DNA of 32,000 bases, taken from positions 300,001-332,000 of the forward strand of contig CAWJMG010000003.1 in assembly GCA_963843975.1 (NCBI GenBank), read 5' to 3'. Positions 18,692 to 32,000 of the stretch are shown piece after piece. Both the position numbers and the translations under genes were made by a program. This DNA comes from an uncultured Actinomycetes bacterium (lineage in GTDB: Bacteria > Actinomycetota > Actinomycetes > S36-B12 > CAIYMF01). Under the pieces are notes generated by a model that ran no database searches, was not told where the DNA came from, and saw nothing but the letters and a program-made list of their open reading frames with translations. Numbering within the stretch: position 1 is the stretch's first letter; each line of letters starts with the position of its first letter.

Positions 18692-18732
18692 GCGCCGATC
18701 GTGCCCCTCGCCACCCACCCTGACCAGAGCCG

Positions 18733-18797
18733 AAAGGGTCCGCTCTGGATGCGTGAGAGGAACGAAGACGTGCCTCCCAGGCATCCAGAGCGGGTCC
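18733..18797 (-). terminator. long stem-loop directly after the flavoprotein-reductase stop, a candidate intrinsic terminator or attenuator
   Basis: The arms GGGTCCGCTCTGGATGC (18736..18752) and GCATCCAGAGCGGGTCC (18781..18797) pair over 13 perfect bp, extending to 17 with two G-U pairs. On the minus-strand RNA the stem is followed by UUUCGG. It lies between the stop at 18797 and the next start at 18691. Confidence 0.5.
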
Positions 18798-22613: not shown

Positions 22614-22912
22614 GAGGCCATCATCGTCCAGCCGCTGCTAGTGGAGGCCGAGGGCACGGCGAGGGTGGCCGAACCGAGACCGGGCGGACGTCGCGCGAGC
22701 CCGTGCCCTGCCCGGTGTCGGTCACGAGTCGTACGAGTAGCGGGGGGCGCGCCGCGTGGGCGTCGCCGGGACTGTGTCATGACCGGTGTCGACGGGCCGG
22801 CGTACGAGTCGCGGGGTGCGTGTGCCCGGGTGAGGATGGTCGCGCGGTCGCTCCGCGACCCGCCGGGTGCCCGGACCTGGATCCGACGACCACTGCAAGG
22901 AGCACCGACGCC

Positions 22913-23506
22913 ATGCGCTCCCGACGTCCCCTCGCCCTGGCCGCCACGGCCCTCGCCCTCGCTGCCGCCCTCAGCGGCTGCAGCAGCCACTCCTCAGGGA
23001 CAGCGTCCGGTGATGCAACCGCGGCGATCGTGGCGGGGCAGGCCGGCGACATCGCCTTCGCCCAGCTGATGATCCCGCACCACGAGCAGGCCGTGGAGAT
23101 GGCCGATCTCGCCCTCGAACGCCAGACCTCGCCCGAGGTCAAGGCGCTCGCCGAGCAGATCAAGGGTGCTCAGGATCCCGAGATCGAGCAGATGTCCGGC
23201 TGGCTCACGACCTGGGGCGCACCCCGCGAGATGCCGTCCGACATGGACCACGGCTCCGACCACGGCGGCATGTCCATGGCCGGGATGATGAGTGACGAGG
23301 ACATGGCTGCCCTCGCTGCCGCGTCGGGAGCCGAGTTCGACCAGAAGTGGCTCACCCTGATGATCGCGCATCACGAGGGCGCGCTCACGATGGCGCAGCA
23401 GGTGCTCGGCACGACGTCCGACACCCAGGTGCGCACCCTCGCCGAGGCCATCGTCGCCGGCCAGAAGGCCGAGATCGCCGACATGAAGGCCCTCCTCGCC
23501 CCCTGA
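22913..23506 (+). CDS. DUF305 family lipoprotein (metal/copper-stress associated family)
   Basis: Lipobox 'AAALSGC'. Duplicated 'MIPHHEQAVEMA' and 'MIAHHEGALTMA' DUF305 His motifs, with a His/Met-rich segment 'DMDHGSDHGGMSMAGMM'. AAGGAG upstream of the ATG at 22913. Confidence 0.85.
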   Translation: MRSRRPLALAATALALAAALSGCSSHSSGTASGDATAAIVAGQAGDIAFAQLMIPHHEQAVEMADLALERQTSPEVKALAEQIKGAQDPEIEQMSGWLTTWGAPREMPSDMDHGSDHGGMSMAGMMSDEDMAALAAASGAEFDQKWLTLMIAHHEGALTMAQQVLGTTSDTQVRTLAEAIVAGQKAEIADMKALLAP

Positions 23507-23521
23507 CGACTGTTCGCCGAC

Positions 23522-23570
23522 GTAGCTGCGAGGCGACGCATCGCAGAGAGAGCGCGTTCGCCGTACAGCT
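23522..23570. repeat. interspersed intergenic repeat, copy B (runs into the apbE stop codon)
   Basis: GTAGCTGCGAGGCGACGCATCGCAGAGAGAGCGCGTTCGCCGTACAGCT. The internal dyad GGCGACGC...GCGTTCGCC lies between the convergent DUF305 and apbE genes. Confidence 0.6.
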
Positions 23571-24369
23571 AGGCGAAGGCGGGACCGAAGAACTCGGCTT
23601 GTCCGTCCTTGACGAGGTAGACGGACCACTCGGGCAGGCCGACGAACCAGCGGTTGCAGGTGGGGCCCTCGACCAGGCACGCCGTGGCGAGCGCATCGGC
23701 CAGGCCCGCATCCGGACCGACGACGGTCGCGCTGTCGTAGTGGACGCCGAAGTCGCCGGTCACGGTGTTGGCGATGTGCGAGCCGCGCTCGTAGAGGCCG
23801 CTCGTCGCGATCGCCCAGCCGTCCGGCACCGACACCGCACGGATGACCGACTGCGTGTCGTAGGGGTTCGTGATCCCGACCGTCCAGTCCTCGCCCGGAG
23901 CCTGGAGGCCGCGGCAGGCGATGTCGCCCGACGCGTTGACGCACACGTTCGAGACACCGGCCGCCACGATCTGGTCGGCCACCACACCTGCGGCCCAGCC
24001 CTTCACGTAGCCGCTCGGGTCCACGCCGCCGCGCACAGCCCAGGGGTCGAACACGCCGTCGGTCAGATCGCGAGCGCCGGCGCAGGCGGCAAGCACCGAC
24101 CGCACGACCGACGGGAGCCGGAACTCCTCCATCAACCCGTTGCGGTACATGGTGATCGGGGTGTCGGCACGGTACGTCGAGAACCACGCGTCGACCTGGT
24201 GCAGGTATGCCGCGGCCGAGGCCACGATCGCGTCGACGTCGGACGGAAGCGAGGGCGAACGGAGGTCGAAGAGCACGTGCGTGCCCCACACGGGCTCGAC
24301 GTGCAGCTTCTGCTCCCAGCCGCCAGGACCGGCGTACGAGATGAGGCCGTCGGTGCCGAGCCCGGTCAT
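23569..24369 (-). CDS. apbE: ApbE-family FAD:protein FMN transferase, with no signal peptide or lipobox
   Basis: 'VWGTHVLFDL', 'VDAWFSTYRADTPI', 'GVFDPW', 'DPSGYVKGWAAG', 'VCVNASGDI', 'AIATSGLYERG', 'HIANTVTG' and 'DALATACLV' match ApbE conserved blocks. The ATG at 24369 is preceded by CGGAGG. Only about 25 residues precede the first conserved block, and none form a hydrophobic signal. Confidence 0.88.
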   Translation of the reverse strand: MTGLGTDGLISYAGPGGWEQKLHVEPVWGTHVLFDLRSPSLPSDVDAIVASAAAYLHQVDAWFSTYRADTPITMYRNGLMEEFRLPSVVRSVLAACAGARDLTDGVFDPWAVRGGVDPSGYVKGWAAGVVADQIVAAGVSNVCVNASGDIACRGLQAPGEDWTVGITNPYDTQSVIRAVSVPDGWAIATSGLYERGSHIANTVTGDFGVHYDSATVVGPDAGLADALATACLVEGPTCNRWFVGLPEWSVYLVKDGQAEFFGPAFA

Positions 24370-24494
24370 ACGAGCCTCCGAACGAGCGGACCGGAGTACG
24401 ACGTCGGCGCGGCGAAGCCGCACGTGCCCACGTGCGAAGCACGAGCGCGCGGACCGGCGTACGACGCCGGAGCGTCGGTGCCGAGCCCGGTCAT
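24366..24494 (-). CDS. 42-codon leader ORF formed by a duplicated apbE 5' end (translation unproven)
   Basis: ATGACCGGGCTCGGCACCGACG occurs at both 24494..24473 and 24369..24348 (minus strand). The upstream copy opens 'MTGLGTDAPASYAGPRARASHVGTCGFAAPTSYSGPLVRRLV*'. Its TGA overlaps the apbE ATG as ATGA, and its ATG lies 1 nt after the stop of the upstream FMN_bind gene. Confidence 0.35.
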   Translation of the reverse strand: MTGLGTDAPASYAGPRARASHVGTCGFAAPTSYSGPLVRRLV

Positions 24495-24495
24495 G

Positions 24496-25158
24496 TCAGA
24501 TGCCCGCCTTGCTCATCGCCGAGGCGAGGGAGGAGACCCAGGCCTTCGACGTGAGGGTAGCGCCCGACACCGCCGCGACCGACGCGCTGCGAGCGCCGAC
24601 GGTCTCGGACGACAGCTTCGGGATCGAGAACTCCGAGTACGGCGACGACTCGCCGGTCGGGTACTTCGCGGCCCAGGCCTTGGTGATCTTGCCGTCGACG
24701 ACGCGGATTCCGACCTGCACGGTGCCGTAACGGTGGGTGACGGCGCTGCCGACGAAGTCGCCGTTGGGCAGGGACTTGGTCGGGGTCGGCTTCGGTGCGG
24801 GCTTGGGTGCGGCCTTGGTGGGCGTCGGCTTCGGCGCGGCGGTCGTCGGGTCGGCGGCGGGCGCGGCCGGGTCGGCGGCGGCCGTCGTGGCACCGGCCTT
24901 GGTCGGCTTCGCGGAGGCCTTGGCCGTCGAGGACGGCTTCGGCTTCGCGCCCTTGGTCGCGGCCGCGGACGGCGACTCCGACGGCGAGGCGGATTCGCCC
25001 GCAGCCGGGGACTCGTCGGCCGGGGGAGCACCGAGGCCGTCGACCGGGCCGGCTGCCGACGCGAGGTCACCCGCGATGGACACCTGGCCGTCGGAGTACG
25101 ACAGCACGGTGGCGAGGCCTGCGACGGTGCCCACTGTCACCAGCAGTGCTCGTCTCAT
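24496..25158 (-). CDS. membrane-anchored FMN_bind-domain protein with a long Pro/Ala/Lys/Thr-rich linker (NqrC/RnfG-like flavinylation target)
   Basis: N-terminus 'MRRALLVTVGTVAGLATVLSY' (signal-anchor with RR). Then ~110 aa of low complexity (AAPKPTPTKAAPKPAPKPTPTK). C-terminal FMN_bind domain 'FVGSAVTHRYGTVQVGIRVVDGKITKAWA...VAAVSGATLTSKAW' carries the SGAT[LS]T flavinylation motif. Confidence 0.85.
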   Translation of the reverse strand: MRRALLVTVGTVAGLATVLSYSDGQVSIAGDLASAAGPVDGLGAPPADESPAAGESASPSESPSAAATKGAKPKPSSTAKASAKPTKAGATTAAADPAAPAADPTTAAPKPTPTKAAPKPAPKPTPTKSLPNGDFVGSAVTHRYGTVQVGIRVVDGKITKAWAAKYPTGESSPYSEFSIPKLSSETVGARSASVAAVSGATLTSKAWVSSLASAMSKAGI

Positions 25159-25175
25159 GATCAGTTCCTTCTCTC

Positions 25176-25220
25176 AAGACCTAGAACGCAAAGACCTAGA
25201 ACGCAAAGACCTAGAACGCG
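25176..25220. repeat. 3 x 15-bp perfect or near-perfect tandem repeat spanning the NOX-like gene stop codon
   Basis: Plus strand: AAGACCTAGAACGCA, AAGACCTAGAACGCA, AAGACCTAGAACGCG. Minus strand: GCG TTC TAG GTC TTT x3, giving three in-frame TAG codons 15 nt apart. The first of these is the stop of the 25211..26824 gene. This is a low-GC island. Confidence 0.9.
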
Positions 25221-26824
25221 AACGCTTCGTGGTGCTGCCGATCGGTCGGCACTCCGGCGTCCTCCGCCGCCTCGAGCACCTTCTCCGTGAACCCGTCAGG
25301 TCCACAGACGTACACGTCGCAGTCGGCGAGGTCCGGGATCATCTCCAGGATCACGTCGGTGCGCAGCCGCGCCTGGCGCCGAGAACCCTCGAGGTACCAG
25401 AGGCGGAACCCGCGCGACATCGCGAGCTCCTCCATCTCCGCGCGCAGCGGCGCGGAGTCGAGCGAGTGCACGCGGAAGACGACGTCGACGTCGGCGCCCT
25501 CGGGCAGGTCCTCGAGCATCGCGCGCACCGGCGTGATGCCGACGCCGGCCGCGAACGCCGCGATCCGGTTGCTGTGCCGCTGCCCGGCGGTGAAGACGCC
25601 GTACGGGCCCTCGGCCCACACCCGGGTGCCGGGCTTGAGCCGCCAGATCAGCTCGCGCGACTGGTCGCCGAGGTCCTTGACCGTGACGCGGAGGAAGGAC
25701 GAGTTCGGGGACGCCGACAGCGAGTACGGGTGCGCCTGCCACCACCAGTGCCGCGTGAGGAAGCGCCACTGGAAGAACTGGCCGCCGCGCGCCTTGAGCA
25801 GGTCGAGGTCGCGGCCGGAGATGTAGATCGACACGACGTCCGGCGTCTCCCGGACGACGGCGGCGACGCGCAGGTCGTGCTTGATCGACGTCGAGACCGG
25901 GGCGATGAAGCGCGAGCCGATGATGATCGCAGCGACCAGCACGTAGAGGCCGATCCAGAACCACTTCTGCATGGGGTGCTTGGCGAACATCGAGCCGAGC
26001 TCGATCTGGTGGCCGAAGGCGAGCGCGACGGCGACGTAGAAGTAGAGGTGCGCCACCCACCAGGTCTCATACTTCATCCGCTGGCGGATCTTGCGGTACG
26101 ACATCACACCGAGGCCCATCATGAGCACGAACGCGGTCGTCGCGGGGACCATCCACGGCGAGTGCGCCACGATGTTCCAGAACTGCTCGAGCACACCGGA
26201 TTCCGCGGCCTGCGCGTAGCCGATCGTCGTCAGCACCATGTGCGCGAGGATCAGGAGCAGGGAGTACGGCGCGACCTGACGGTGCAGCCACACGAGCTTG
26301 TCGTGGCCGACCTCGCGCTCCACCCACGGAACGCGCGCGACGAGCACGAGCAGCACGAGGCAGAGGTACGTGCCCGCCATCGCCGTGATCGAGCCCAGCG
26401 CCGTCATCGGTCCGCCGAGGTACTGCCAGGTCGCGGGCGCGTCCCCGACGGCGAAGGCCGTGGTGATGCCGAGGCCGATGCCCGCGATCAGCACCGCGAT
26501 GTCGCCACGGCGGGTCGAGGTGCCACGAGCATGGATGCCGCTCTCGACCGGGATCGGGTACGTGACGGGAGCCATGGCAGCAGGCGAGGCGGTGCCCAGC
26601 GCGCCCGAGGCGAGCTCGGCGTCGTAGTCGGGCTCGGGGATGAACACCCGCGGTGGGATCACGGCGTCGTGCGCAGGAGCCGGCGGCTCGAGCGGCAGGG
26701 CGGGACCGGTCGGCACGGGCGGCAGCAGCAGGCTGCCGTACGACGCGTCCGCGGGGAGCGGTGCGACGCCGCCGTGCCGGCCGACCGGACCGCCAGGGCT
26801 GAACCTGGTCTGCTCGAGCGTCAT
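25211..26824 (-). CDS. NOX / ferric-reductase-type transmembrane oxidoreductase (bis-heme FRD domain + FAD-binding + NAD(P)H-binding domains)
   Basis: - His pairs with NOX-type spacing: 'LHRQVAPYSLLLILAH' (14 apart) and 'AHLYFYVAVALAFGH' (13 apart).
- FAD motif 'HPYSLS'.
- NAD(P)H motifs 'AFAAGVGITP' and 'VYVCGPDGF'.
- About 110-aa Pro-rich N-terminal extension.
- The ATG at 26824 lies 2 nt after the upstream TAG. Confidence 0.88.
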   Translation of the reverse strand: MTLEQTRFSPGGPVGRHGGVAPLPADASYGSLLLPPVPTGPALPLEPPAPAHDAVIPPRVFIPEPDYDAELASGALGTASPAAMAPVTYPIPVESGIHARGTSTRRGDIAVLIAGIGLGITTAFAVGDAPATWQYLGGPMTALGSITAMAGTYLCLVLLVLVARVPWVEREVGHDKLVWLHRQVAPYSLLLILAHMVLTTIGYAQAAESGVLEQFWNIVAHSPWMVPATTAFVLMMGLGVMSYRKIRQRMKYETWWVAHLYFYVAVALAFGHQIELGSMFAKHPMQKWFWIGLYVLVAAIIIGSRFIAPVSTSIKHDLRVAAVVRETPDVVSIYISGRDLDLLKARGGQFFQWRFLTRHWWWQAHPYSLSASPNSSFLRVTVKDLGDQSRELIWRLKPGTRVWAEGPYGVFTAGQRHSNRIAAFAAGVGITPVRAMLEDLPEGADVDVVFRVHSLDSAPLRAEMEELAMSRGFRLWYLEGSRRQARLRTDVILEMIPDLADCDVYVCGPDGFTEKVLEAAEDAGVPTDRQHHEAFAF

Positions 26825-26826
26825 GA

Positions 26827-29800
26827 CTACAGGCCTGCCTTCGTGAGTGCGGACTGGAGCGAGGTCTTGTACGCGGCGAAGGTGAGGGTCGCGCCCGACA
26901 CCTTCGCGATGTTCACGGACTGCGCCACGACGACCTCGCTGTTGTACTTCGGCAGCGCGGTCGAGTTGATCTGCTGGGTCTCGCTGCCGTCGTTGGTGAG
27001 CAACGTGCCCTTAGCCACCGTGATGACGCCGTTGACGACGGTGAGGGTGACGTTGAGGGTGCCGTGGCCGCTCGAGATCGAGGCCGTGTTGCCCACGAAC
27101 GTCCCGTTGACCAGCGGCAGGCTCGGGGTGCCCGAGACGGTCGACGAGGCGGGCGAGACCGCGGTGCCGGCGACGGCGGTCACGTAGTACGAGTAGCTCG
27201 TGCCGTTCGTCAGCGCGGTGTCGCTGTACGTCGTTCCCGTAGGCGACCCGACGAGCGTGCCGTTGCGGTAGACGCGGTACGACGCCGCACCGGAGACCGC
27301 CGTCCACGACAGCGCGTTGGTCGCGTTGCCCGGCGTGACGGTGAGACCGGTCGGCGCTGCGGGCGTCGGCGTGGCGGTCGCTGCCGTCGACGCTGCGCTC
27401 GCACCGCCGGCGTTCACCGCCACGACGGTGTAGCTGACCGCGGTGCCCGGCGTGAGCCCGGTCTCGACGTACGACGTGGTGGCCGTCGTGGTGAGCAGCG
27501 TCGCGCCGCGGTAGACGCGGTACGACGTCGCGCCCGAGACCGCGGCCCACGCGACCGTGACCTGGTTCGCGCCGGCCGTGGCGGTGACACCGGTCGGCGT
27601 CGCCGGTGCGGGCACCTGCGGCGTCGCGCTGGCCGAGGCCGAGGCCGTCGACTCCGCGCTGTTCTGCTTCACCGCGGTGACGGTCCAGCTGTACGACGTG
27701 CCGTTGGTGAGGCCGGTGTCGGTGTACGACGCGCTGACCACCGAGGCGACGAGGACGCCGCCGCGGTACACGCGATAGCCCGTTGCGCCGGCGGGCGCGG
27801 TCCACGTGAGGGCGACCTGCGTGTTGCCGGCGACGGCGACCAGGCTGGTCGGGGCGGACGGCGCTGCGGCGACCGGAGTGGCCGACAGGGGCGACGACGC
27901 GGCGGACGATGCGGTGCCGTTCACGGCCACGACCGTGAACGCGTACGGCGTGCCGTTGGTGAGGCTGCTGACCGTGGCGCTGGTCGACGAGGGCGAGGCG
28001 ACGAGCACGCCGTCGCGGTAGACCCGGTACGACAGCGCGTGCGCGGACGCCGTCCAGGACAGGGCGATCGAGCCGTCGCCCGGCGTCGCGGCGAGACCCA
28101 CGGGGACGTCGGGCACGATCGGGACCGGCGTCACGTAGACCGACGACGACGCCGCCGACTCCACGCCGCCCACGACCGCGGTGACCCAGAACGTGTAGCT
28201 CGTGCCGTTCGCGAGCGAGGACTCGGTCCACGTGTTGCCCGCGGTCGAGGTCACCAGCACGCCGCCGCGGTAGACGTTGTACGACGACGCGCTGCCGACC
28301 ACGTTCCACGTGAGCGTCGCGATCGTGTCGCCCGGCGTCCCGACGAGACCGGTCGGTGCTCCTGCGGCTGCGGCGACGGGGGAGGACGTGAAGGGGGCCG
28401 ACGCGGCGGACTGCGGCGAGTTCTGCTTCACCGCGGTGACGGTCCAGGTGTACGACTGGCCGTTCACGAGCCCGGTGTCGGCGTACGACGCACCCGCGGC
28501 CGAGCCGACGAACGTGCCGTCGCGGTAGACGCGGTAGCCGGTGGCGCCGCTCGACGGCGTCCACGACAGCGACATGCTCGAGTCGCCGGGCATCGCCGAG
28601 AGGCCGGTCGGGGCCGAGGGTGTCGCGGCGACGGCGCTGGAGGTGACGGTGCTCGACGCCGTCGAGGCCGACGAGTTCTGGCGGTACGCCACGACGTAGT
28701 AGCTGTGGCTCGCGCCGTTCGCCGCGGACAGGTCGGTGTACGACGTCGTCGCGAGCGAGGTGAGCAGCGTGCCGTCGCGGTACACGGCATACGCGTCTGC
28801 ACCTGACGGTGCCGACCACGACAGCGCGATCTGGCCGTCGCCCGGTGTCGCGGCGAGACCGGTGGGTGCGGACGGCGCGGTGGCGACCGGGGTCGTCGAG
28901 GCGGCGCCCGACTGCGCGGACGGCGCCGAGTTCTGCTTCACCGCGGCGACGGTCCAGCTGTACGACGTGCCGTTGGTGAGCCCGGTGTCCGTGTACGCGT
29001 TCGTGGCGGGGGAGCCCACGAGCACTCCGCCGCGGTAGACGCGGTAGCCGGTGGCGCCGCTGACGGCGTTCCACGTGAGGGACGCCGTCGCGCTGCCGGG
29101 CGTGACGGCGAGACCGGTCGGGGCGGCCGGCGTCGCGGCCACGGGAGTGCCGTTGACCGCGGTGGTGCGGGTCGACTCGGCGCTGTTCTGCTTCACCGCG
29201 GCGATGCGGTACGCGTACGACGTGCCGTTGGCGAGGCCGGTGTCGGTGTACGACGGCGTCTCGGGCGAGGCGACGAGCACGTTGTTGCGGTAGACGCGGT
29301 ACGCCGTCGCACCGGCGGGCGCGGTCCACGTGATGCTCAGCTGCGCGTCGCCCACCGAGATCGCGACGCCCGTCGGCATCGATGGCGCGGTGGCGACCGG
29401 GGTCGAGGTCACGGCAGCGCTGGCACCCGAGGCGCGTGAGCCGTTCACCGCGACGACCGTGTAGGAGTACGTCGTGCCGTTCACGACGCCGCTGTCGGCG
29501 TACGTCGCGGCCACGGGCGACGCGACGAGAGCGCCGTCGCGGTAGACGCGGTAGCCCGTCACGCCGGGGACGGCGGTCCACGTGAGCGTGATGCGCGCGT
29601 CGGCGCCGACGGCTGCCAGGCCGGCCGGCGTGCTCGGGATGCCGATGTCCGGCGTCGCAAGCACCTGCGCGGAGATCGCGCCCCAGCCGGCGACGTTCGT
29701 AGCCATCACCGTGTAGGCGTAGGTCGAGCCGTTGGTCACCGCGGTGTCGACGTACGCCGGGCTCGCGACGCGCGTGATCTCGAGGCCGTCGCGGTAGACG

Positions 29801-30354
29801 CGGTAGGCGCTAGCACCGGCGACGGCGGGCCAGCTGAGCGAGACCTGCGTGTCGGCGGGCGCGGCGAGCACGCCGGTGACCTGACCGGGCTTGGCGACGA
29901 ACGGCGCCTGCACGTAGTGCCGCGCGCGGATCGTGGCGGTGAGGGTGTCGACCGTCTTGGTCATCGCGAGCTGCGAGGCGACGATCTCGGCAGCGGCGTC
30001 GAGCTTGGCCTTCTTGGCCTTGTTCCACGCGGCAAGCGCACTGGCGTCGTCGGCCGACCCTGCCGTGGCCTGAGCCGTCACGTAGTCGTCGTACGTCGAG
30101 GCCACGAGCGTGACGGCCGCGGAGTAGGCGGGCAACGAGTCGGTGTAGCGCTGGCGGGCGGCGACGACCGTGGGGTCGGCGTCGACGGCGGCGGTGATCT
30201 CTGCGGTCACCTCGTCGGCGGTCTGGCCCCAGTCGTTGAGGACGTCCTGGCCGGGGGCCGGTGCGGCCACCGCGGGCGTGAGCCCGCCGGCGGTGCCCGC
30301 GAGCGTGCCAAGGGTCGCTGCGACGGCGGCTGCACTCCTGGTCGAGGTACGCAT
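26827..30354 (-). CDS. secreted giant protein: signal peptide + ~115-aa helical module + 11 FN3 domains + C-terminal FMN_bind domain
   Basis: Single 1175-aa ORF with strong GC3 bias.
- N-terminus: 'MRTSTRSAAAVAATLGTLAGTAGGLTPAVAAP'.
- Eleven ~85-aa repeats of the pattern 'PTGL.a.PGd..i.LsW.a.sGAtgYRVYR.G.LV.s....sYtDtGLtNGTsYsYtV.AV'.
- C-terminus: 'FVGNTASISSGHGTLNVTLTVVNGVITVAKG...AKVSGATLTFAAYKTSLQSALTKAGL' (FMN_bind with SGAT motif).
- The ATG overlaps the upstream stop as TGATG. Confidence 0.9.
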   Translation of the reverse strand: MRTSTRSAAAVAATLGTLAGTAGGLTPAVAAPAPGQDVLNDWGQTADEVTAEITAAVDADPTVVAARQRYTDSLPAYSAAVTLVASTYDDYVTAQATAGSADDASALAAWNKAKKAKLDAAAEIVASQLAMTKTVDTLTATIRARHYVQAPFVAKPGQVTGVLAAPADTQVSLSWPAVAGASAYRVYRDGLEITRVASPAYVDTAVTNGSTYAYTVMATNVAGWGAISAQVLATPDIGIPSTPAGLAAVGADARITLTWTAVPGVTGYRVYRDGALVASPVAATYADSGVVNGTTYSYTVVAVNGSRASGASAAVTSTPVATAPSMPTGVAISVGDAQLSITWTAPAGATAYRVYRNNVLVASPETPSYTDTGLANGTSYAYRIAAVKQNSAESTRTTAVNGTPVAATPAAPTGLAVTPGSATASLTWNAVSGATGYRVYRGGVLVGSPATNAYTDTGLTNGTSYSWTVAAVKQNSAPSAQSGAASTTPVATAPSAPTGLAATPGDGQIALSWSAPSGADAYAVYRDGTLLTSLATTSYTDLSAANGASHSYYVVAYRQNSSASTASSTVTSSAVAATPSAPTGLSAMPGDSSMSLSWTPSSGATGYRVYRDGTFVGSAAGASYADTGLVNGQSYTWTVTAVKQNSPQSAASAPFTSSPVAAAAGAPTGLVGTPGDTIATLTWNVVGSASSYNVYRGGVLVTSTAGNTWTESSLANGTSYTFWVTAVVGGVESAASSSVYVTPVPIVPDVPVGLAATPGDGSIALSWTASAHALSYRVYRDGVLVASPSSTSATVSSLTNGTPYAFTVVAVNGTASSAASSPLSATPVAAAPSAPTSLVAVAGNTQVALTWTAPAGATGYRVYRGGVLVASVVSASYTDTGLTNGTSYSWTVTAVKQNSAESTASASASATPQVPAPATPTGVTATAGANQVTVAWAAVSGATSYRVYRGATLLTTTATTSYVETGLTPGTAVSYTVVAVNAGGASAASTAATATPTPAAPTGLTVTPGNATNALSWTAVSGAASYRVYRNGTLVGSPTGTTYSDTALTNGTSYSYYVTAVAGTAVSPASSTVSGTPSLPLVNGTFVGNTASISSGHGTLNVTLTVVNGVITVAKGTLLTNDGSETQQINSTALPKYNSEVVVAQSVNIAKVSGATLTFAAYKTSLQSALTKAGL
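27100..29890 (-). repeat. array of 11 FN3-encoding repeats (~255 nt each) inside the giant gene, with some near-identical DNA blocks
   Basis: For example, 27662..27727 versus 28931..28996 differ at 3 of 66 nt (ttctgcttcaccgcgg[t/c]gacggtccagctgtacgacgtgccgttggtgag...). Further copies of ttctgcttcaccgcgg start at 28421 and 29177. There are two repeat subtypes: 'AVKQNS' (repeats 3, 4, 6 and 9, plus the variant 'AYRQNS' in repeat 5) and 'AVNG/AVxG'. Confidence 0.85.
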
Positions 30355-31106
30355 CAGAACTTGTACCCCGCCTTCACGAGCGCGGAGGCGAGGGACTTCG
30401 CGAAGGCCTCGGAGCTGAGGGTCGCGCTCGTGACCGTGGCGACCTTCGCGGTGTCGCCCGCGTTCATCGCCTCGACCAGCAGGGTGGGCAGCGCGATCTC
30501 GTTGTAGTACCGGGAGCTTCCGGTCTGGGTGTACTGCACCGCGGCGACATCGCTGACGTGACCGCCGTACACGGTGATCTGCACCTGCATCGGCTCGAGG
30601 CCGATGCCGCCGATGAAGTACTGCGCGACGTCGCCGGTGTAGGTGCCGTCGATCGGGCGGTAGTGCTTCGCGGTCCAGTAGGTCTTGTACTTCGAGAGCG
30701 TCGCGAGCATGGCGGAGTACGCGGCGTCCGAGGACCTCTTCGCAGCGTCGCGGGCAGCCCTGGTGCTGACGTAGGCCTTCTTGGCCGCAGCGATCTTCGT
30801 CGCCGAGTGCGTCGCCAGCGCCTTCTTGTACGCCGTGTACCGCGTCGCGGTGACCTTGACGAGGTAGAGGTAGCGCGCGTGCTTCGTGGCGTACGTCGCG
30901 CGGGCCGTCTTCACCGCGGATGTCGCCTCGACCTGCGCTTTGATCTCGACCGAGCGCTCGTAGTCGGACTGCCCGTAGTCGTTGTTGACCGCCTGGCCCG
31001 GCTCGGCGGCGGCGAACGCCGGAGCTGTGCCGAGCACAGCGGCGGAGCCCCCCGCGATGACGGTGGCTATCCCCGCGGACGTCATGACTCGACGGCCGAT
31101 ACCCAT
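30354..31106 (-). CDS. secreted FMN_bind-domain protein with a Tat-like signal and the same N-terminal helical module as the giant protein
   Basis: 'MGIGRRVMTSAGIATVIAGGSAAVLGTAPAFAAA' (RR + h-region + AxA). The helical module 'PGQAVNNDYGQSDYERSVEIKAQVEATSAVKTARATY...AKHY' aligns with 'PGQDVLNDWGQTADEVTAEITAAVDADPTVVAARQRY...ARHY' of the giant. C-terminal FMN_bind 'GGIGLEPMQVQITVYGGHVSDVAAV...VATVTSATLSSEAFAKSLASALVKAG' carries the variant motif TSAT instead of SGAT. Confidence 0.8.
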   Translation of the reverse strand: MGIGRRVMTSAGIATVIAGGSAAVLGTAPAFAAAEPGQAVNNDYGQSDYERSVEIKAQVEATSAVKTARATYATKHARYLYLVKVTATRYTAYKKALATHSATKIAAAKKAYVSTRAARDAAKRSSDAAYSAMLATLSKYKTYWTAKHYRPIDGTYTGDVAQYFIGGIGLEPMQVQITVYGGHVSDVAAVQYTQTGSSRYYNEIALPTLLVEAMNAGDTAKVATVTSATLSSEAFAKSLASALVKAGYKF

Positions 31107-31160
31107 GTCCGAACCCCTTGCGCCCCGTGCTGCCATCCCCGTGCTTGGCATATCGCCGGT

Positions 31161-31171
31161 CCGGAATCCGG
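31161..31171. promoter_or_regulatory. 11-bp palindrome CCGGAATCCGG in the divergent control region (site 1)
   Basis: Perfect 5-1-5 palindrome, 55-65 nt upstream of the ATG at 31106. A related palindrome lies 75 bp away. Confidence 0.35.
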
Positions 31172-31235
31172 TCTTGAGCGCTGATCGGTCAAGGTTCGTC
31201 CAAGGCCTGTGACGTGAGTTGCTCCGTCCCGGCTC

Positions 31236-31246
31236 TCGGAATCCGA
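31236..31246. promoter_or_regulatory. 11-bp palindrome TCGGAATCCGA in the divergent control region (site 2)
   Basis: Perfect 5-1-5 palindrome that shares the 9-bp core CGGAATCCG with site 1. Centre-to-centre spacing is 75 bp. Confidence 0.35.
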
Positions 31247-31443
31247 CCGACCGTGCGCAGCAGCGGTTAGGACGGCCGCGGTTCACCTGTTCGGCCCTGC
31301 CCGACCGAGGAGGTGGTCCCCTAGCGTCACTGTTTGACCCACGGCATCCACGCGAGTCGCTCTGGCTGCGCCCGGAAGTCGGGCATCGAACGCCGCCCGT
31401 CGGTACTCTCCCCACGAAGCATCGTGTCGTTCGGGGGATCGAG

Positions 31444-32000
31444 ATGACGACGGGGACTGCGCAGCTGCTGTTCGGCGCTGCACACCAGAAGCTCGGGGGC
31501 GTGACGCCCTTCCTCACCATGTGGCTCGTCGAGGGCCGTATGGCGCGCTGGCGCGTCGACGACGTCGGCGACGGTCCGCTCACCTGGGTGCCGCGCACTC
31601 CCGACCGCGTCGTGTCCGACGCCCTCGTGCTGCTGCTCGCGCTCACGACGACGCCGCGCGACCCGGTGCCCGTCGCGCTGACAGCGATGGCCGGCGGCCT
31701 CCCGTGGCGGCACGGCGACGTCGACCTCAGCACGTGGCGGCACTACGACGCGCAGCAGCTGGACGCGCTGGTCGCGGCCTCCGAGCCGGGCGGCAAGGTG
31801 GTGCTGTCGGTGCTGCCGGAGGCGAGCGTGCCCGAGACCAGCCTGGCGCCGCTCGAGCACCTCGACTGGGATGTCGACGTCCTCATGCCGCGGCTCACCC
31901 GGCGTCGCCGGGACCGCGATGTGCACCAGGCGCCGCCGCCGGGGCTGCCCGGCCCGGCACTGCCCAGAGAGCCTCAGGAGCCACGTCAGTCCCACCGGTC
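31444..32000 (+). CDS. hypothetical protein, 5' part (runs off the window end); not in the supplied ORF track
   Basis: The ATG at 31444 is preceded by GGGGGA 6 nt upstream. The frame is open to nt 32000 with very strong G/C at third positions (MTTGTAQLLFGAAHQKLGGVTPFLTMWLVEGRMARWRVDDVGDGPLTWVPRTPDRVV...). The listed antisense ORF 31327..31995 (-) is its shadow. No family recognised. Confidence 0.65.
   Translation, partial: MTTGTAQLLFGAAHQKLGGVTPFLTMWLVEGRMARWRVDDVGDGPLTWVPRTPDRVVSDALVLLLALTTTPRDPVPVALTAMAGGLPWRHGDVDLSTWRHYDAQQLDALVAASEPGGKVVLSVLPEASVPETSLAPLEHLDWDVDVLMPRLTRRRRDRDVHQAPPPGLPGPALPREPQEPRQSHR

Follow-up and report, generated by a model that had tools for sequence, protein, structure and literature searches.

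The operon lies on the minus strand of the analysed window, which is a 32,000-nt stretch of DNA from an uncultured Actinomycetes bacterium, between positions 23569 and 31106. All five open reading frames listed there by an earlier note on this DNA were real and lay where they had been placed. The order on the minus strand is P1, P2, a NOX-type protein, P4, a 42-codon ORF and ApbE. The note had described a tight chain of five genes, and this description stood only in part. The TGATG junction at 30354 (P1/P2) and the 2-nt gap at positions 26825-26826 (P2/NOX) were correct. The NOX gene and P4 are separated by a 52-nt spacer without overlap, a junction missing from the note, and P4 is not joined directly to ApbE: the 1-nt gap at 24495 and the ATGA at 24366-24369, listed by the note as further links of the chain, flank the 42-codon ORF instead (24366..24494, minus strand; MTGLGTDAPASYAGP...), which begins 1 nt past the stop codon of P4 and overlaps the start of apbE. 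This ORF arose through partial tandem duplication of 125 bp from the 5' end of apbE, inserted between P4 and apbE, and thus the chain consists of six ORFs rather than five tightly coupled genes. The insertion was absent in two relatives, L001 (93%) and L004 (91%), in which a single nucleotide separates the P4 stop codon from the start of apbE, while a second assembly (L084) carried it in identical form. The 42-codon ORF had no Pfam match and is unlikely to be a functional gene, although it might keep translation coupled.

Pfam, motifs and fold identified the 537-aa product of the third gene (25211..26824, minus strand) as a NOX-type (MsrQ-like) transmembrane NAD(P)H oxidoreductase. Ferric_reduct (65.9 bits), FAD_binding_8 (27.3 bits) and NAD_binding_1 (34.3 bits) all exceeded their gathering cut-offs, and the MsrQ model gave a weak match (16.8 bits, cut-off 130). 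Residues 1-103 form a Pro-rich, disordered N-terminus; the ferric-reductase domain has six helices and carries His181, His195, His259 and His272. The proposed NOX spacing of the His pairs (14 for His181/His195, 13 for His259/His272), the FAD motif HPYS at 365 and the NAD(P)H motifs GVGITP at 427 and CGP at 507 were all found and were invariant in 18 homologues. Sequence searches of the PDB matched SpNOX (8qt6, 8qq7) over residues 161-513. The best fold matches of the AF2 model (pLDDT 71) were SpNOX (E 8.5e-13), NOX5, NOX2 and DUOX1, which bore out the NOX-type nature of the membrane protein.

Three FMN_bind proteins accompany this enzyme, each with one FMN site and no other cofactor domain. 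P4 (220 aa; 24496..25158, minus strand) is membrane-tethered and scored 26.1 bits for FMN_bind (cut-off 22). Its N-terminal anchor, MRRALLVTVGTVAGLATVLSYS, is predicted to be oriented N-in and is conserved, the consensus M[KR]RA[IL]LVxxGTxAGL being kept in about 75 of 80 homologues. The anchor is followed by a linker of ~110 aa (residues 25-134; 27% Ala, 19% Pro, 11% Ser, 10% Thr, 10% Lys). P1 (250 aa; 30354..31106, minus strand) and P2 (1175 aa; 26827..30354, minus strand) are secreted, with cleavable signal peptides (that of P1 ends in AFA) and a conserved mature N-terminus, PGQxxNND[YW]GQ. Profile searches upheld Ferric_reduct, FAD_binding_8, NAD_binding_1, ApbE, fn3 and the FMN_bind domain of P4, whereas FMN_bind in P1 (residues 154-245, 19.5 bits) and P2 (19.8 bits) fell just short of the cut-off of 22. 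All domain calls nevertheless hold. The C-terminal domain of P1 matched SaFMN3-D2 (8p2a) both by sequence (E 3.8e-8) and by fold (TM 0.91, 40% identity), P4 matched the same structure (E 6e-13), and the acceptor Thr motif was present in all three proteins as claimed. SaFMN3-D2 has been crystallised in covalently flavinylated form, and the acceptor Thr residues of P1 and P4 align with it in register; its Em is -184 mV (PMC10339131). The predicted acceptors are Thr229 in P1 (variant motif TSAT), Thr1156 in the C-terminal FMN_bind domain of P2 (SGAT) and Thr201 in P4 (SGAT).

In P1, the region ahead of the flavin domain (residues ~39-150) forms an antiparallel helical hairpin: the AF2 model (pLDDT 82) has two helices (63-99 and 102-147) and then a beta/alpha domain. 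This N-domain had no Pfam match even at E<=10. P2 carries an alignable N-domain with 33% identity to that of P1. The domain gave 26 matches among 1.84 billion representatives, and the P1 family is small (60 clusters). Its presence in both proteins suggests pairing or docking at one site, and the hairpin probably serves such a role. Between the N-domain and FMN_bind, P2 has 11 tandem FN3 domains (~residues 153-1080, period 84-85 aa; Pfam fn3 169 bits), which place its single FMN site ~930 residues away from the N-domain. P2 showed neither an LPXTG motif nor an SLH domain nor a membrane anchor. An FN3 array without redox cofactors is unable to conduct electrons, and a lone FMN at the tip of a ~35-40 nm rod cannot serve as an electron relay unless the domain physically shuttles.

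The last gene (23569..24369, minus strand) encodes a short-form ApbE-type FAD:protein FMN transferase of 266 aa (Pfam ApbE, 104.9 bits) with the motifs KGW (123), SH (His198) and DALAT (225). Compared with ApbE structures in the PDB (V. cholerae and others), it has a ~50-aa gap relative to residues 97-151 of 6nxi. The earlier note had assumed an enzyme working outside the cytoplasm, as with NqrC and PplA, and this did not agree with our searches. Neither a signal peptide, a lipobox nor a hydrophobic segment was present, and an N-terminal export signal was lacking in all relatives examined (66 loci and 120 gene-called homologues). The enzyme therefore appears, from its predicted sequence features, to stay inside the cell, and FMN attachment is most likely cytoplasmic before export, or is performed by another, exported ApbE. 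Twin-arginine motifs were not consistently present. That this ApbE and all relatives examined have no export signal, though the three substrates are exported, looks new. The acceptor motif [ST]GA[ST] was kept in 24/24 P2-like (as SGAT, SGAS or TGAT), ~74/80 P4-like and 20/25 P1-like proteins. The family motif does not have the canonical Asp. In the clade of the window, the Gly of the P1 motif is swapped for Ser, Thr or His; in another system, a Gly-to-Ala change halved flavinylation (PMC12052999).

Co-conservation of the genes, anticipated by the earlier note, was confirmed by the neighbourhood analysis. Relatives down to ~55% NOX identity keep this gene order, an arrangement far beyond chance. 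Essentially all 83 related loci with sufficient flanking sequence had the core order NOX, P4, ApbE, the P4-type gene following the NOX gene. The P1+P2 pair stood upstream of the NOX gene in 18 of the 65 loci with adequate flank, all of which belonged to the long-tether paralogue group; at least 18 related genomes keep the pair in this place. The genomes contain two paralogous types of the system, one with a long tether and often with accessory proteins, the other with a short tether and none. This coexistence looks new, as do the helical-hairpin N-domain and the conservation of the P1/P2 pair. Among the genes beside the cluster, none for a terminal reductase, an iron transporter or a quinone-linked function was conserved, and nothing in the window or the related loci named a terminal acceptor or indicated respiratory extracellular electron transfer.

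Under the operational definition used in the literature, the cluster counts as an MsrQ-like system. Méheust et al. (2021, eLife) described this system on bioinformatic grounds from 1,797 clusters, mostly in Actinobacteria, and proposed that electrons pass from NAD(P)H to a flavinylated protein outside the cytosol (PMC8238504). Huang et al. (2024; PMC10979944) presented a model of its complex with the anchored flavoprotein. The core, made up of the NOX-type cytochrome, the tethered FMN_bind protein and ApbE, is an already known system, with an adjacent membrane-anchored FMN_bind protein and apbE and an identical core model. In the literature searched, we found no experimental test of any MsrQ-like system, and the term was met only in three comparative papers. 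Electron-export systems of this kind had been predicted from genomes before, and the version in the window differs by adding two unusual secreted proteins with a single FMN each; both have an undescribed helical-hairpin N-domain, and one also has 11 FN3 domains. It also differs in being a long-tether paralogue beside a minimal short-tether paralogue in the same genomes, and in the predicted cytosolic location of its ApbE, which is not discussed in the searched portions of the texts of Méheust et al. and Huang et al. We consider it probable, at roughly 60%, that the operon is an elaborated, lineage-specific form of actinobacterial MsrQ-like (NOX-type), flavinylation-associated transmembrane electron transfer.

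Judged from sequence, the membrane enzyme probably takes electrons from NAD(P)H and passes them to flavin-carrying proteins outside the cell. In the 537-aa protein, NAD(P)H would reduce the FAD of the cytosolic dehydrogenase domain, and electrons would cross the membrane through two b-type haems, the inner one presumably bound by His181/His259 and the outer one by His195/His272, by analogy with NOX2. The outer haem would then reduce the covalent FMN on Thr201 of P4. P4 may be held beside the cytochrome by its conserved N-terminal helix, with the flavin domain moving on the flexible ~110-residue tether; the high conservation of the anchor helix points to a specific membrane complex like the one in the model of Huang et al. 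From P4 the electron could exit directly, or via the single covalent FMN of P1 (Thr229) and P2 (Thr1156), in which the eleven cofactor-free FN3 domains would be a spacer or leash of ~35-40 nm rather than a wire. ApbE would attach the FMN, most likely in the cytoplasm before export, unless another, exported ApbE does so. Candidate terminal acceptors are Fe(III) complexes, quinone- or humic-type compounds and O2. The three-reach relay proposed earlier (tether, small protein, FN3 rod) is a plausible hypothesis.

The identity of the acceptor leaves room for other readings. The operon could encode an assimilatory ferric reductase, in which extracellular or wall-bound Fe(III) complexes would be reduced for uptake as by eukaryotic FRE enzymes, with P1 and P2 extending the reach into the wall. 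Since the mechanism would be unchanged, this would refine the favoured explanation by naming acceptor and purpose. The Ferric_reduct domain agrees with it, and the presence of one of two paralogous systems per genome fits an accessory nutritional role. Furthermore, 153 MsrQ-like clusters contain a VIT1 iron transporter, and assimilatory iron reduction was proposed for some of them (PMC8238504), while in Bifidobacterium breve the anchored FMN_bind protein SifE and apbE were required for growth under ferrous-iron chelation (PMC5449479). However, no iron transporter or siderophore gene was found in the window's flanks and none recurred in related loci, no IdeR-like box occurred within 6 mismatches anywhere in the window, and the conserved repeat upstream of P1 bears no resemblance to an iron box. 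We regard iron assimilation as a possible, but rather unlikely, purpose. It is very doubtful that the protein is an O2-reducing NADPH oxidase whose outer haem would pass electrons to O2 to form superoxide, with the flavoproteins as modulators, scavengers or unrelated passengers rather than the electron acceptors. SpNOX, the closest relative with a solved structure, needs no partner to reduce O2, and the NOX-type His spacing and the FAD/NADPH motifs are present here; reduced SaFMN3 itself also reacts with O2 (PMC10339131). However, SpNOX-type enzymes are ~400 aa long and do not require a partner, whereas in essentially all 83 loci the NOX gene is linked to apbE and a gene for an anchored FMN_bind protein, and the P4 anchor helix is highly conserved. 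This linkage argues that the flavoprotein is the partner, and the acceptor of the ferric-reductase-domain protein is then probably protein-bound flavin rather than O2.

The roles of the accessory proteins and of ApbE can also be read otherwise. P1 and P2 might be parallel end-stations, each reduced directly by the long-tethered P4 and then acting on its own substrate or at its own site, or structural wall proteins rather than a series relay; alternatively, the N-domain and FN3 array might mainly anchor or space a surface layer. Modularity speaks for this: an N-domain+FMN_bind protein is the sole accessory in some loci, upstream in L028 and downstream of apbE in L030, L031, L033, L037 and L055, an FN3+FMN_bind protein occurs by itself in L035 and L036, the FN3 count varies from 5 to 13 across loci, and the P4 tether is long (97-183 aa) throughout the long-tether group whether P1/P2 are present or not. 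Nevertheless, P1 and P2 were together and adjacent in 18/18 complete five-gene loci, and their shared N-domain points to pairing or a common docking site, so that we judge a parallel arrangement unlikely. It would be more surprising still if ApbE were not the flavinylator of the exported proteins and had a cytosolic target or another role in flavin handling, P1, P2 and P4 being modified by an exported ApbE or binding flavin non-covalently. A signal is missing throughout this ApbE subfamily, the acceptor motif does not contain the canonical Asp, and cytosolic ApbEs with cytosolic substrates are known, as for Klebsiella fumarate reductase (PMC12052999). However, apbE follows P4 in 66 loci and is translationally coupled to it in relatives (1-nt gap), the catalytic His and DALAT motif are kept, the cluster encodes no cytosolic protein with an acceptor motif, and an Asp-to-Ala change had only minor effects elsewhere.

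Several characterised systems share parts of the proposed MsrQ-like path. SpNOX, NOX2, NOX5 and DUOX have the same predicted transmembrane and dehydrogenase fold, the same bis-His spacing and the same HP[FY][ST] FAD and GxGxxP/CGP NADPH motifs. However, identity to SpNOX was only 15-16% in the Foldseek structure alignment, the window protein has an additional disordered N-terminal region of ~100 aa, and EF-hand, p22phox or DUOXA partners are absent. In the extracellular electron transfer system of Listeria monocytogenes (Ndh2, EetA, EetB, DmkA, PplA, FmnB), likewise a monoderm, NADH-derived electrons also reach ApbE-flavinylated extracytosolic FMN_bind protein(s). The distinction drawn by the earlier note is nevertheless justified: the cluster contains no Ndh2, quinone step, EetA/EetB or FAD exporter, and the membrane would be crossed by a NOX-type dihaem protein. 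Moreover, PplA is a lipoprotein with two FMN_bind domains whereas the window has three proteins with one each, and FmnB is an exported lipoprotein whereas the ApbE here has no signal. SaFMN3 of Streptomyces azureus resembles the system here in being an exported actinobacterial protein with the FMN_bind fold and the acceptor Thr, and in having a flavin transferase gene beside it. It has three FMN domains on short flexible linkers, which allow flavin-to-flavin hopping, whereas P2 has one FMN and eleven FN3 domains. MsrPQ (E. coli YedYZ) also uses a haem b membrane subunit with a ferric-reductase domain to reduce a periplasmic redox partner, but MsrQ has neither of the FAD and NAD(P)H domains, NAD(P)H does not drive it through a fused dehydrogenase domain, and its partner is the molybdoenzyme MsrP rather than a flavinylated protein.

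Two repeats accompany the operon. The direct repeat TTGGACGAACCTTGACCGA (consensus TTGGACGnnnCTTGGACG; 31185..31203, minus strand) lies ~80 nt ahead of the P1 start. It had no match to Rfam families and its region contained no sigma-70 consensus. It sits within a block that five relatives, two of them at 69-70% NOX identity, share in their upstream regions. With <=4 mismatches allowed, 10 loci had the motif ahead of their P1-like gene and on its strand, and elsewhere it gave only 2 weak matches in 1.4 Mb, so that the repeat is a candidate promoter or operator of the operon. The other is a perfect 15-nt tandem repeat, GCGTTCTAGGTCTTT x 2.9 (25176..25219, minus strand; Tandem Repeats Finder, 100% matches), which begins in the final NOX codons, spans the NOX stop codon and occupies most of the 52-nt spacer. 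Its copy number varies among close relatives (one in L004, three in the window and four in L001) and leaves the protein sequence unchanged.

The PF01794 gene, apbE and three FMN_bind genes formed a single co-directional cluster on the minus strand of the window, whose G+C content was about 71%. The genes encode a small secreted FMN_bind protein (P1; 30354-31106, 250 aa), an FMN_bind protein with a fibronectin type III (FN3) array (P2; 26827-30354, 1175 aa), a NOX-type transmembrane oxidoreductase (NOX; 25211-26824, 537 aa), a membrane-tethered FMN_bind protein (P4; 24496-25158, 220 aa) and the flavin transferase ApbE (23569-24369, 266 aa). The sequence observations of an earlier note on this DNA were largely confirmed, and every domain that it named was supported by Pfam. 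The TGATG junction between P1 and P2 at 30354 and the 2-nt gap between P2 and NOX (26825-26826) were found as described. However, the tight chain of five genes that it had proposed is interrupted in its second half. NOX and P4 are separated by a 52-nt spacer, and the 1-nt gap at 24495 and the ATGA at 24366-24369, which had been taken as a direct join of P4 to ApbE, flank a 42-codon ORF (24366-24494, minus strand) that arose from a 125-bp partial tandem duplication of the apbE 5' end. The duplication was identical in a second assembly (L084) and left apbE intact; it was absent from the 93% and 91% relatives (L001 and L004), in which apbE starts 1 nt past the P4 stop. A SYAGP-coding segment is present in three consecutive copies in the duplication region (window 24366-24494). 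The spacer itself is mostly made of a perfect 15-nt tandem repeat, GCGTTCTAGGTCTTT (25176-25219, minus strand), which begins in the last NOX codons and spans the NOX stop. Its copy number was one in L004, three in the window and four in L001 with the NOX protein unaltered; the repeat at the NOX stop is a VNTR-like locus.

The NOX protein carried Ferric_reduct, FAD_binding_8 and NAD_binding_1 domains, all above the curated Pfam cut-offs (for example, 65.9 bits against 28 for PF01794, Ferric_reduct, and 34.3 bits against 22 for NAD_binding_1). The NOX-spaced His pairs noticed earlier were placed at His181/His195, 14 residues apart, and His259/His272, 13 apart, and they were invariant in 18 homologues down to 52% identity, as were the HPYS (365), GVGITP (427) and CGP (507) motifs for FAD and NAD(P)H. 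By its HP[FY][ST] and GxGxxP / CGP motifs, the protein has a fused FNR-like dehydrogenase domain. Sequence search returned the Streptococcus pneumoniae NADPH oxidase (SpNOX), with the match covering both membrane and dehydrogenase parts. The AlphaFold2 model of NOX alone was of moderate confidence (pLDDT 71, residues 1-103 disordered), and its best PDB matches were SpNOX (8qt6, E 8.5e-13, TMt 0.61), NOX5, NOX2 (8x2l_B) and DUOX1. Taken together, the motifs, the sequence match and the predicted fold justify the label 'NOX-type' at the level of architecture. A flavinylation site inside NOX was rejected, for HPYSLSAS is an ordinary FNR-family FAD motif. Residues 1-103 form a Pro-rich extension of about 100 residues, predicted to be disordered, which some homologues have and others lack.

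Each of P1, P2 and P4 had one FMN_bind domain and one acceptor motif. The domain of P4 scored 26.1 bits, above the Pfam cut-off of 22, and those of P1 and P2 scored 19.5 and 19.8 bits, slightly below it. The assignment for P1 was confirmed independently by the crystal structure of SaFMN3 domain 2, which is covalently flavinylated, at the level of both sequence (E 3.8e-8) and fold (TM 0.91, 40% identity); P4 matched the same structure at E 6e-13. The FN3 array of P2 was recovered as well (fn3, 169 bits), with eleven repeats at a period of 84-85 residues. Cleavable signal peptides with AxA sites were present on P1 and P2. P4 starts with a strongly conserved anchor, M[KR]RA[IL]LVxxGTxAGL, followed by an acidic flank, indicating an N-in, C-out topology. 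The lipobox was absent from all three proteins. ApbE recognizes the motif D-x-x-[S/T]-G-A-[S/T] in its substrates, and the predicted acceptors were Thr229 of P1 (TSAT; codon at window 30420-30422), Thr1156 of P2 (SGAT) and Thr201 of P4 (SGAT). Compared with the canonical motif, P2 and P4 keep [ST]GA[ST] whereas Gly is changed to Ser in P1, and Ala stands at the canonical Asp position in P1, P2 and P4 and throughout all three protein families. Replacement of the Gly was seen in P1 of the window's immediate clade (including L001, L003, L004 and L005), where TSAT, STAT, TTAT and THAT occur, while more distant P1-like proteins retain [ST]GA[ST]. In another system, mutagenesis of Asp to Ala had a minor effect and Gly to Ala left about 50% flavinylation (PMC12052999).

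P1 and P2 have in common an N-terminal domain (N-domain) of about 115 residues directly after the signal peptide, with 33% identity between the two, which starts at a conserved mature N-terminus, PGQxxNND[YW]GQ, and ends at an invariant His-Tyr. In the AlphaFold2 model of P1 (pLDDT 82), it folded into an antiparallel hairpin of two long helices (63-99 and 102-147) before the FMN_bind fold. No Pfam or NCBIfam family was assigned to it even at E<=10, and Foldseek searches against the PDB gave generic coiled-coil resemblances only. Among 1.84 billion cluster representatives, a profile of the domain retrieved no more than 26 proteins, all with the domain directly after the signal peptide and with lengths of either ~240-300 or ~590-1365 residues. 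In layout, P2 resembles a P1 whose hairpin and flavin domain have been separated by an FN3 array. In the literature searched, no paper combined FMN-binding domains, fibronectin type III and ApbE.

To our knowledge, MsrQ-like systems are the most widespread predicted exit route for cytosolic NAD(P)H electrons in actinobacteria. The system was defined by a PF01794 gene clustered with apbE and/or FMN_bind genes, and 1,797 such clusters were counted in 1,468 genomes and called 'broadly conserved in Actinobacteria', with NAD(P)H proposed as the cytosolic donor (Méheust et al., 2021; PMC8238504). Later, the cytochrome was modelled with AlphaFold together with a flavinylated protein anchored in the membrane (Huang et al., 2024; PMC10979944). 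In the window, apbE is accompanied by FMN_bind proteins with a signal peptide (P1, P2) or an anchor (P4). The core thus fits both the definition and the model, indicating that it belongs to a published, uncharacterised class, of which this cluster is a compact, self-contained five-gene version. In the literature searched, the term 'MsrQ-like' was found only in three papers from the Méheust/Huang group, and no experimental test of any such system was found. The earlier note, which saw in the operon a flavin-based trans-envelope electron conduit from NOX to a relay of three flavoproteins, was partly supported. It was right about the class of system, but this class had already been described, and the assumed extracytoplasmic flavinylation is at odds with where ApbE is predicted to be. 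It was also right in separating the operon from the Listeria type. The Listeria EET locus has a membrane Ndh2, EetA, EetB, DmkA/DmkB and the PplA lipoprotein, none of which is in the window's cluster, and each flavoprotein here has one FMN_bind domain and no lipobox, in contrast to the two domains of PplA. The multi-flavinylated proteins of Méheust et al. (2021) are different too, with more than one FMN_bind domain per polypeptide. What looks new here is the undescribed pair of N-domain and FN3 flavoproteins, the presence of two paralogous types of the cluster and the puzzle of ApbE localisation.

The assignment of ApbE was well supported (PF02424, 104.9 bits). It aligned to V. cholerae ApbE (6nxi) and retained SHI (His198) and DALAT (225), which line up in solved ApbEs with the catalytic His and with the Asp/Thr that bind the metal (Mg2+), though at 266 aa it is short, its N-terminal half lacking about 50 canonical residues. 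An N-terminal lipoprotein or secretion signal is typical of ApbE but not universal. The window protein had neither a hydrophobic segment nor a lipobox; none of the 66 homologues of related loci had a signal peptide or lipobox, and neither was seen in 120 independently gene-called homologues (54-100% identity), which had a median of 26 residues before the first conserved strand. A 2.76-Mb contig encodes an ApbE identical to the window's. The predicted location of ApbE conflicts with extracytoplasmic action. Its presumed substrates P1, P2 and P4, by contrast, are exported. Cytosolic ApbEs with cytosolic substrates are known (PMC12052999); no report of a cytosolic ApbE serving exported proteins was found in the literature searched, nor anything relevant on Tat-dependent flavinylated proteins. 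The flavin could be attached in the cytosol before export, by a second ApbE that is exported and encoded elsewhere in the genome, or by this ApbE after an unconventional export. The cluster had no FAD exporter genes, which fits, without proving, the cytosolic option. RR was found in 33 of 53 P1-like signal peptides, in about 9 of 21 P2-like ones (the window's P2 has none) and in 7 of 80 P4-like anchors, about 62 of which had KR. With motifs so inconsistent across the three families, Tat export as an answer to the signal-less ApbE appears neither supported nor excluded.

Scanning one genome per species, with annotation by profiles built from the window's own proteins, gave 80 loci. Nearly all were from Actinomycetota or unclassified MAGs, mostly of the Nanopelagicales type, together with Sporichthyaceae, Jatrophihabitans and the cultured Longivirga aurantiaca; the nearest match in the genome collection was a Candidatus Nanopelagicales MAG (L004, 91% NOX identity). 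Wherever enough flank was available, the gene-neighbourhood check recovered, essentially without exception, the order NOX, anchored FMN_bind protein, ApbE. Two groups of NOX proteins were distinguished. Scored against the window protein, the window's group reached 500 bits or more and had P4-like tethers of 97-183 residues, whereas the other stayed at or below 485 bits, had tethers of 41-76 residues except for three outliers (83, 84 and 116) and never had the accessory flavoproteins. This short-tether cluster is a minimal NOX, FMN_bind and ApbE set, with NOX 46-51% identical to the window's. When loci were paired per genome by shared accession prefixes, at least 19 genomes had one locus of each group, and the window's genome probably has a short-tether cluster too. 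The short-tether loci L045, L047-L054, L056-L070 and others came from the same genomes as L004, L005, L010 and others. Longivirga aurantiaca CGMCC 4.7317 had both a long-tether core and a short-tether paralogue (L010, L049) and lacked P1 and P2. In the long-tether group, 65 loci had enough sequence upstream, and 18 of these carried an adjacent pair of P1-like and P2-like genes there. Variant loci had only an N-domain plus FMN_bind protein, encoded either upstream or after apbE, or an FN3 plus FMN_bind protein downstream; the FN3 count ranged from 5 to 13 across loci.

The published MsrQ-like path is the best-supported reading of the operon. Electrons would pass from NAD(P)H through FAD and two b haems to the covalent FMN of anchored P4, and this lineage would have extended the path with a long flexible P4 tether and two added secreted single-FMN proteins. 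A three-tier relay of P4, P1 and P2 would be a reasonable elaboration of that path, and P1 and P2 might be consecutive or parallel steps, or might dock through the hairpin that they share. The FN3 rod holds no cofactor. Conduction along it is excluded on first principles, and P2 would widen the reach only if its flavin domain moves on the rod or if the rod merely positions that domain. A further elaboration would be a 'tethered flavin shuttle' that spans the wall. Leashed single-FMN carriers would swing physically, with no cofactor wire, and bring electrons from a NOX-type cytochrome b driven by NAD(P)H to acceptors past the monoderm wall. The three leashes would not be equally long or stiff: one would be the disordered membrane tether (~110 residues), one a coiled-coil hairpin and one the rod of 11 FN3 domains (~35-40 nm). 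The common N-domain would pair or dock P1 and P2. The signal-less ApbE subfamily would flavinylate in the cytoplasm, making an FAD exporter unnecessary, and the holo-proteins would be exported via Tat, or via Sec as modified chains. As a whole, with leashed carriers and cytoplasmic flavinylation before export, we consider this unlikely, at a probability of roughly 0.15. Two features of the cluster matter more widely. Single-flavin domains on long passive leashes may carry electrons across a thick wall, which would be an alternative to multihaem or multiflavin wires, and exported flavoproteins may be modified by a signal-less ApbE, which bears on the biogenesis and export of covalent flavoproteins in monoderms. 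Should its carriers be redundant and its job no more than iron reduction for uptake, the system would be an ordinary member of the known class.

The Actinomycetota that carry the cluster are abundant in fresh water and soil, and most of what is known of them comes from metagenomes. The acceptor, be it iron, humic quinones or O2, would therefore be informative on their ecology too. No reductase or transporter that would point to it was found in the window flanks or among the recurrent neighbours of related loci. VIT1 is associated with other MsrQ-like clusters (PMC8238504), and an anchored FMN_bind protein and apbE matter in Bifidobacterium breve under iron chelation (PMC5449479); these data are indirect hints that iron may be the acceptor.

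When flanking ORFs up to 6 kb from the core were clustered across all loci, no terminal reductase, iron transporter or FAD exporter appeared as a recurrent neighbour. Around the long-tether clusters just one protein family recurred, a GGDEF-EAL family seen in 10 loci with varying position and strand. This membrane protein was encoded in L003 (712-2847), L006, L008, L009, L011, L081 (downstream of apbE), L018, L022, L034 and L071 and was absent from the window's flanks; the association may stem from chance paralogy or from a link in regulation. The window's own flanks encode DUF305, a hydrolase, a GlcD-like oxidase, a ferredoxin reductase, RecQ and Pta, all unrelated housekeeping functions. The DUF305 gene (180 bits; 22703-23506, plus strand), whose product has a signal-peptide-like N-terminus, is convergent and lies just downstream of apbE; its position beside the cluster was not conserved in relatives. 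Farther away, 15719-18784 (minus strand) encodes a 1021-aa predicted multi-pass membrane protein with a C-terminal GHSQG (lipase/esterase-like) motif and a Pro/Glu/Ala-rich tail, for which there was no Pfam match at E<=0.001.

Scans of 23000-32000 returned no promoters or terminators. An FMN or other riboswitch upstream was rejected, with no Rfam match at gathering thresholds in the whole window or at E<=1 in 31000-31500, and so was iron regulation, as no site in the whole window came within 6 mismatches of an IdeR box. The block upstream of P1 (31107-31260) was conserved down to relatives with 69-70% NOX identity. Inside it lies a direct repeat, TTGGACGnnnCTTGGACG (31185-31203, minus strand), preceded by GGAGCAAC...GTCACA and followed by the palindrome CCGGATTCCGG. 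The TTGGACGnnnCTTGGACG repeat may be an operator or promoter; 10 loci had it upstream of their P1-like gene, and it was almost absent from the rest of the 1.4 Mb of related sequence.
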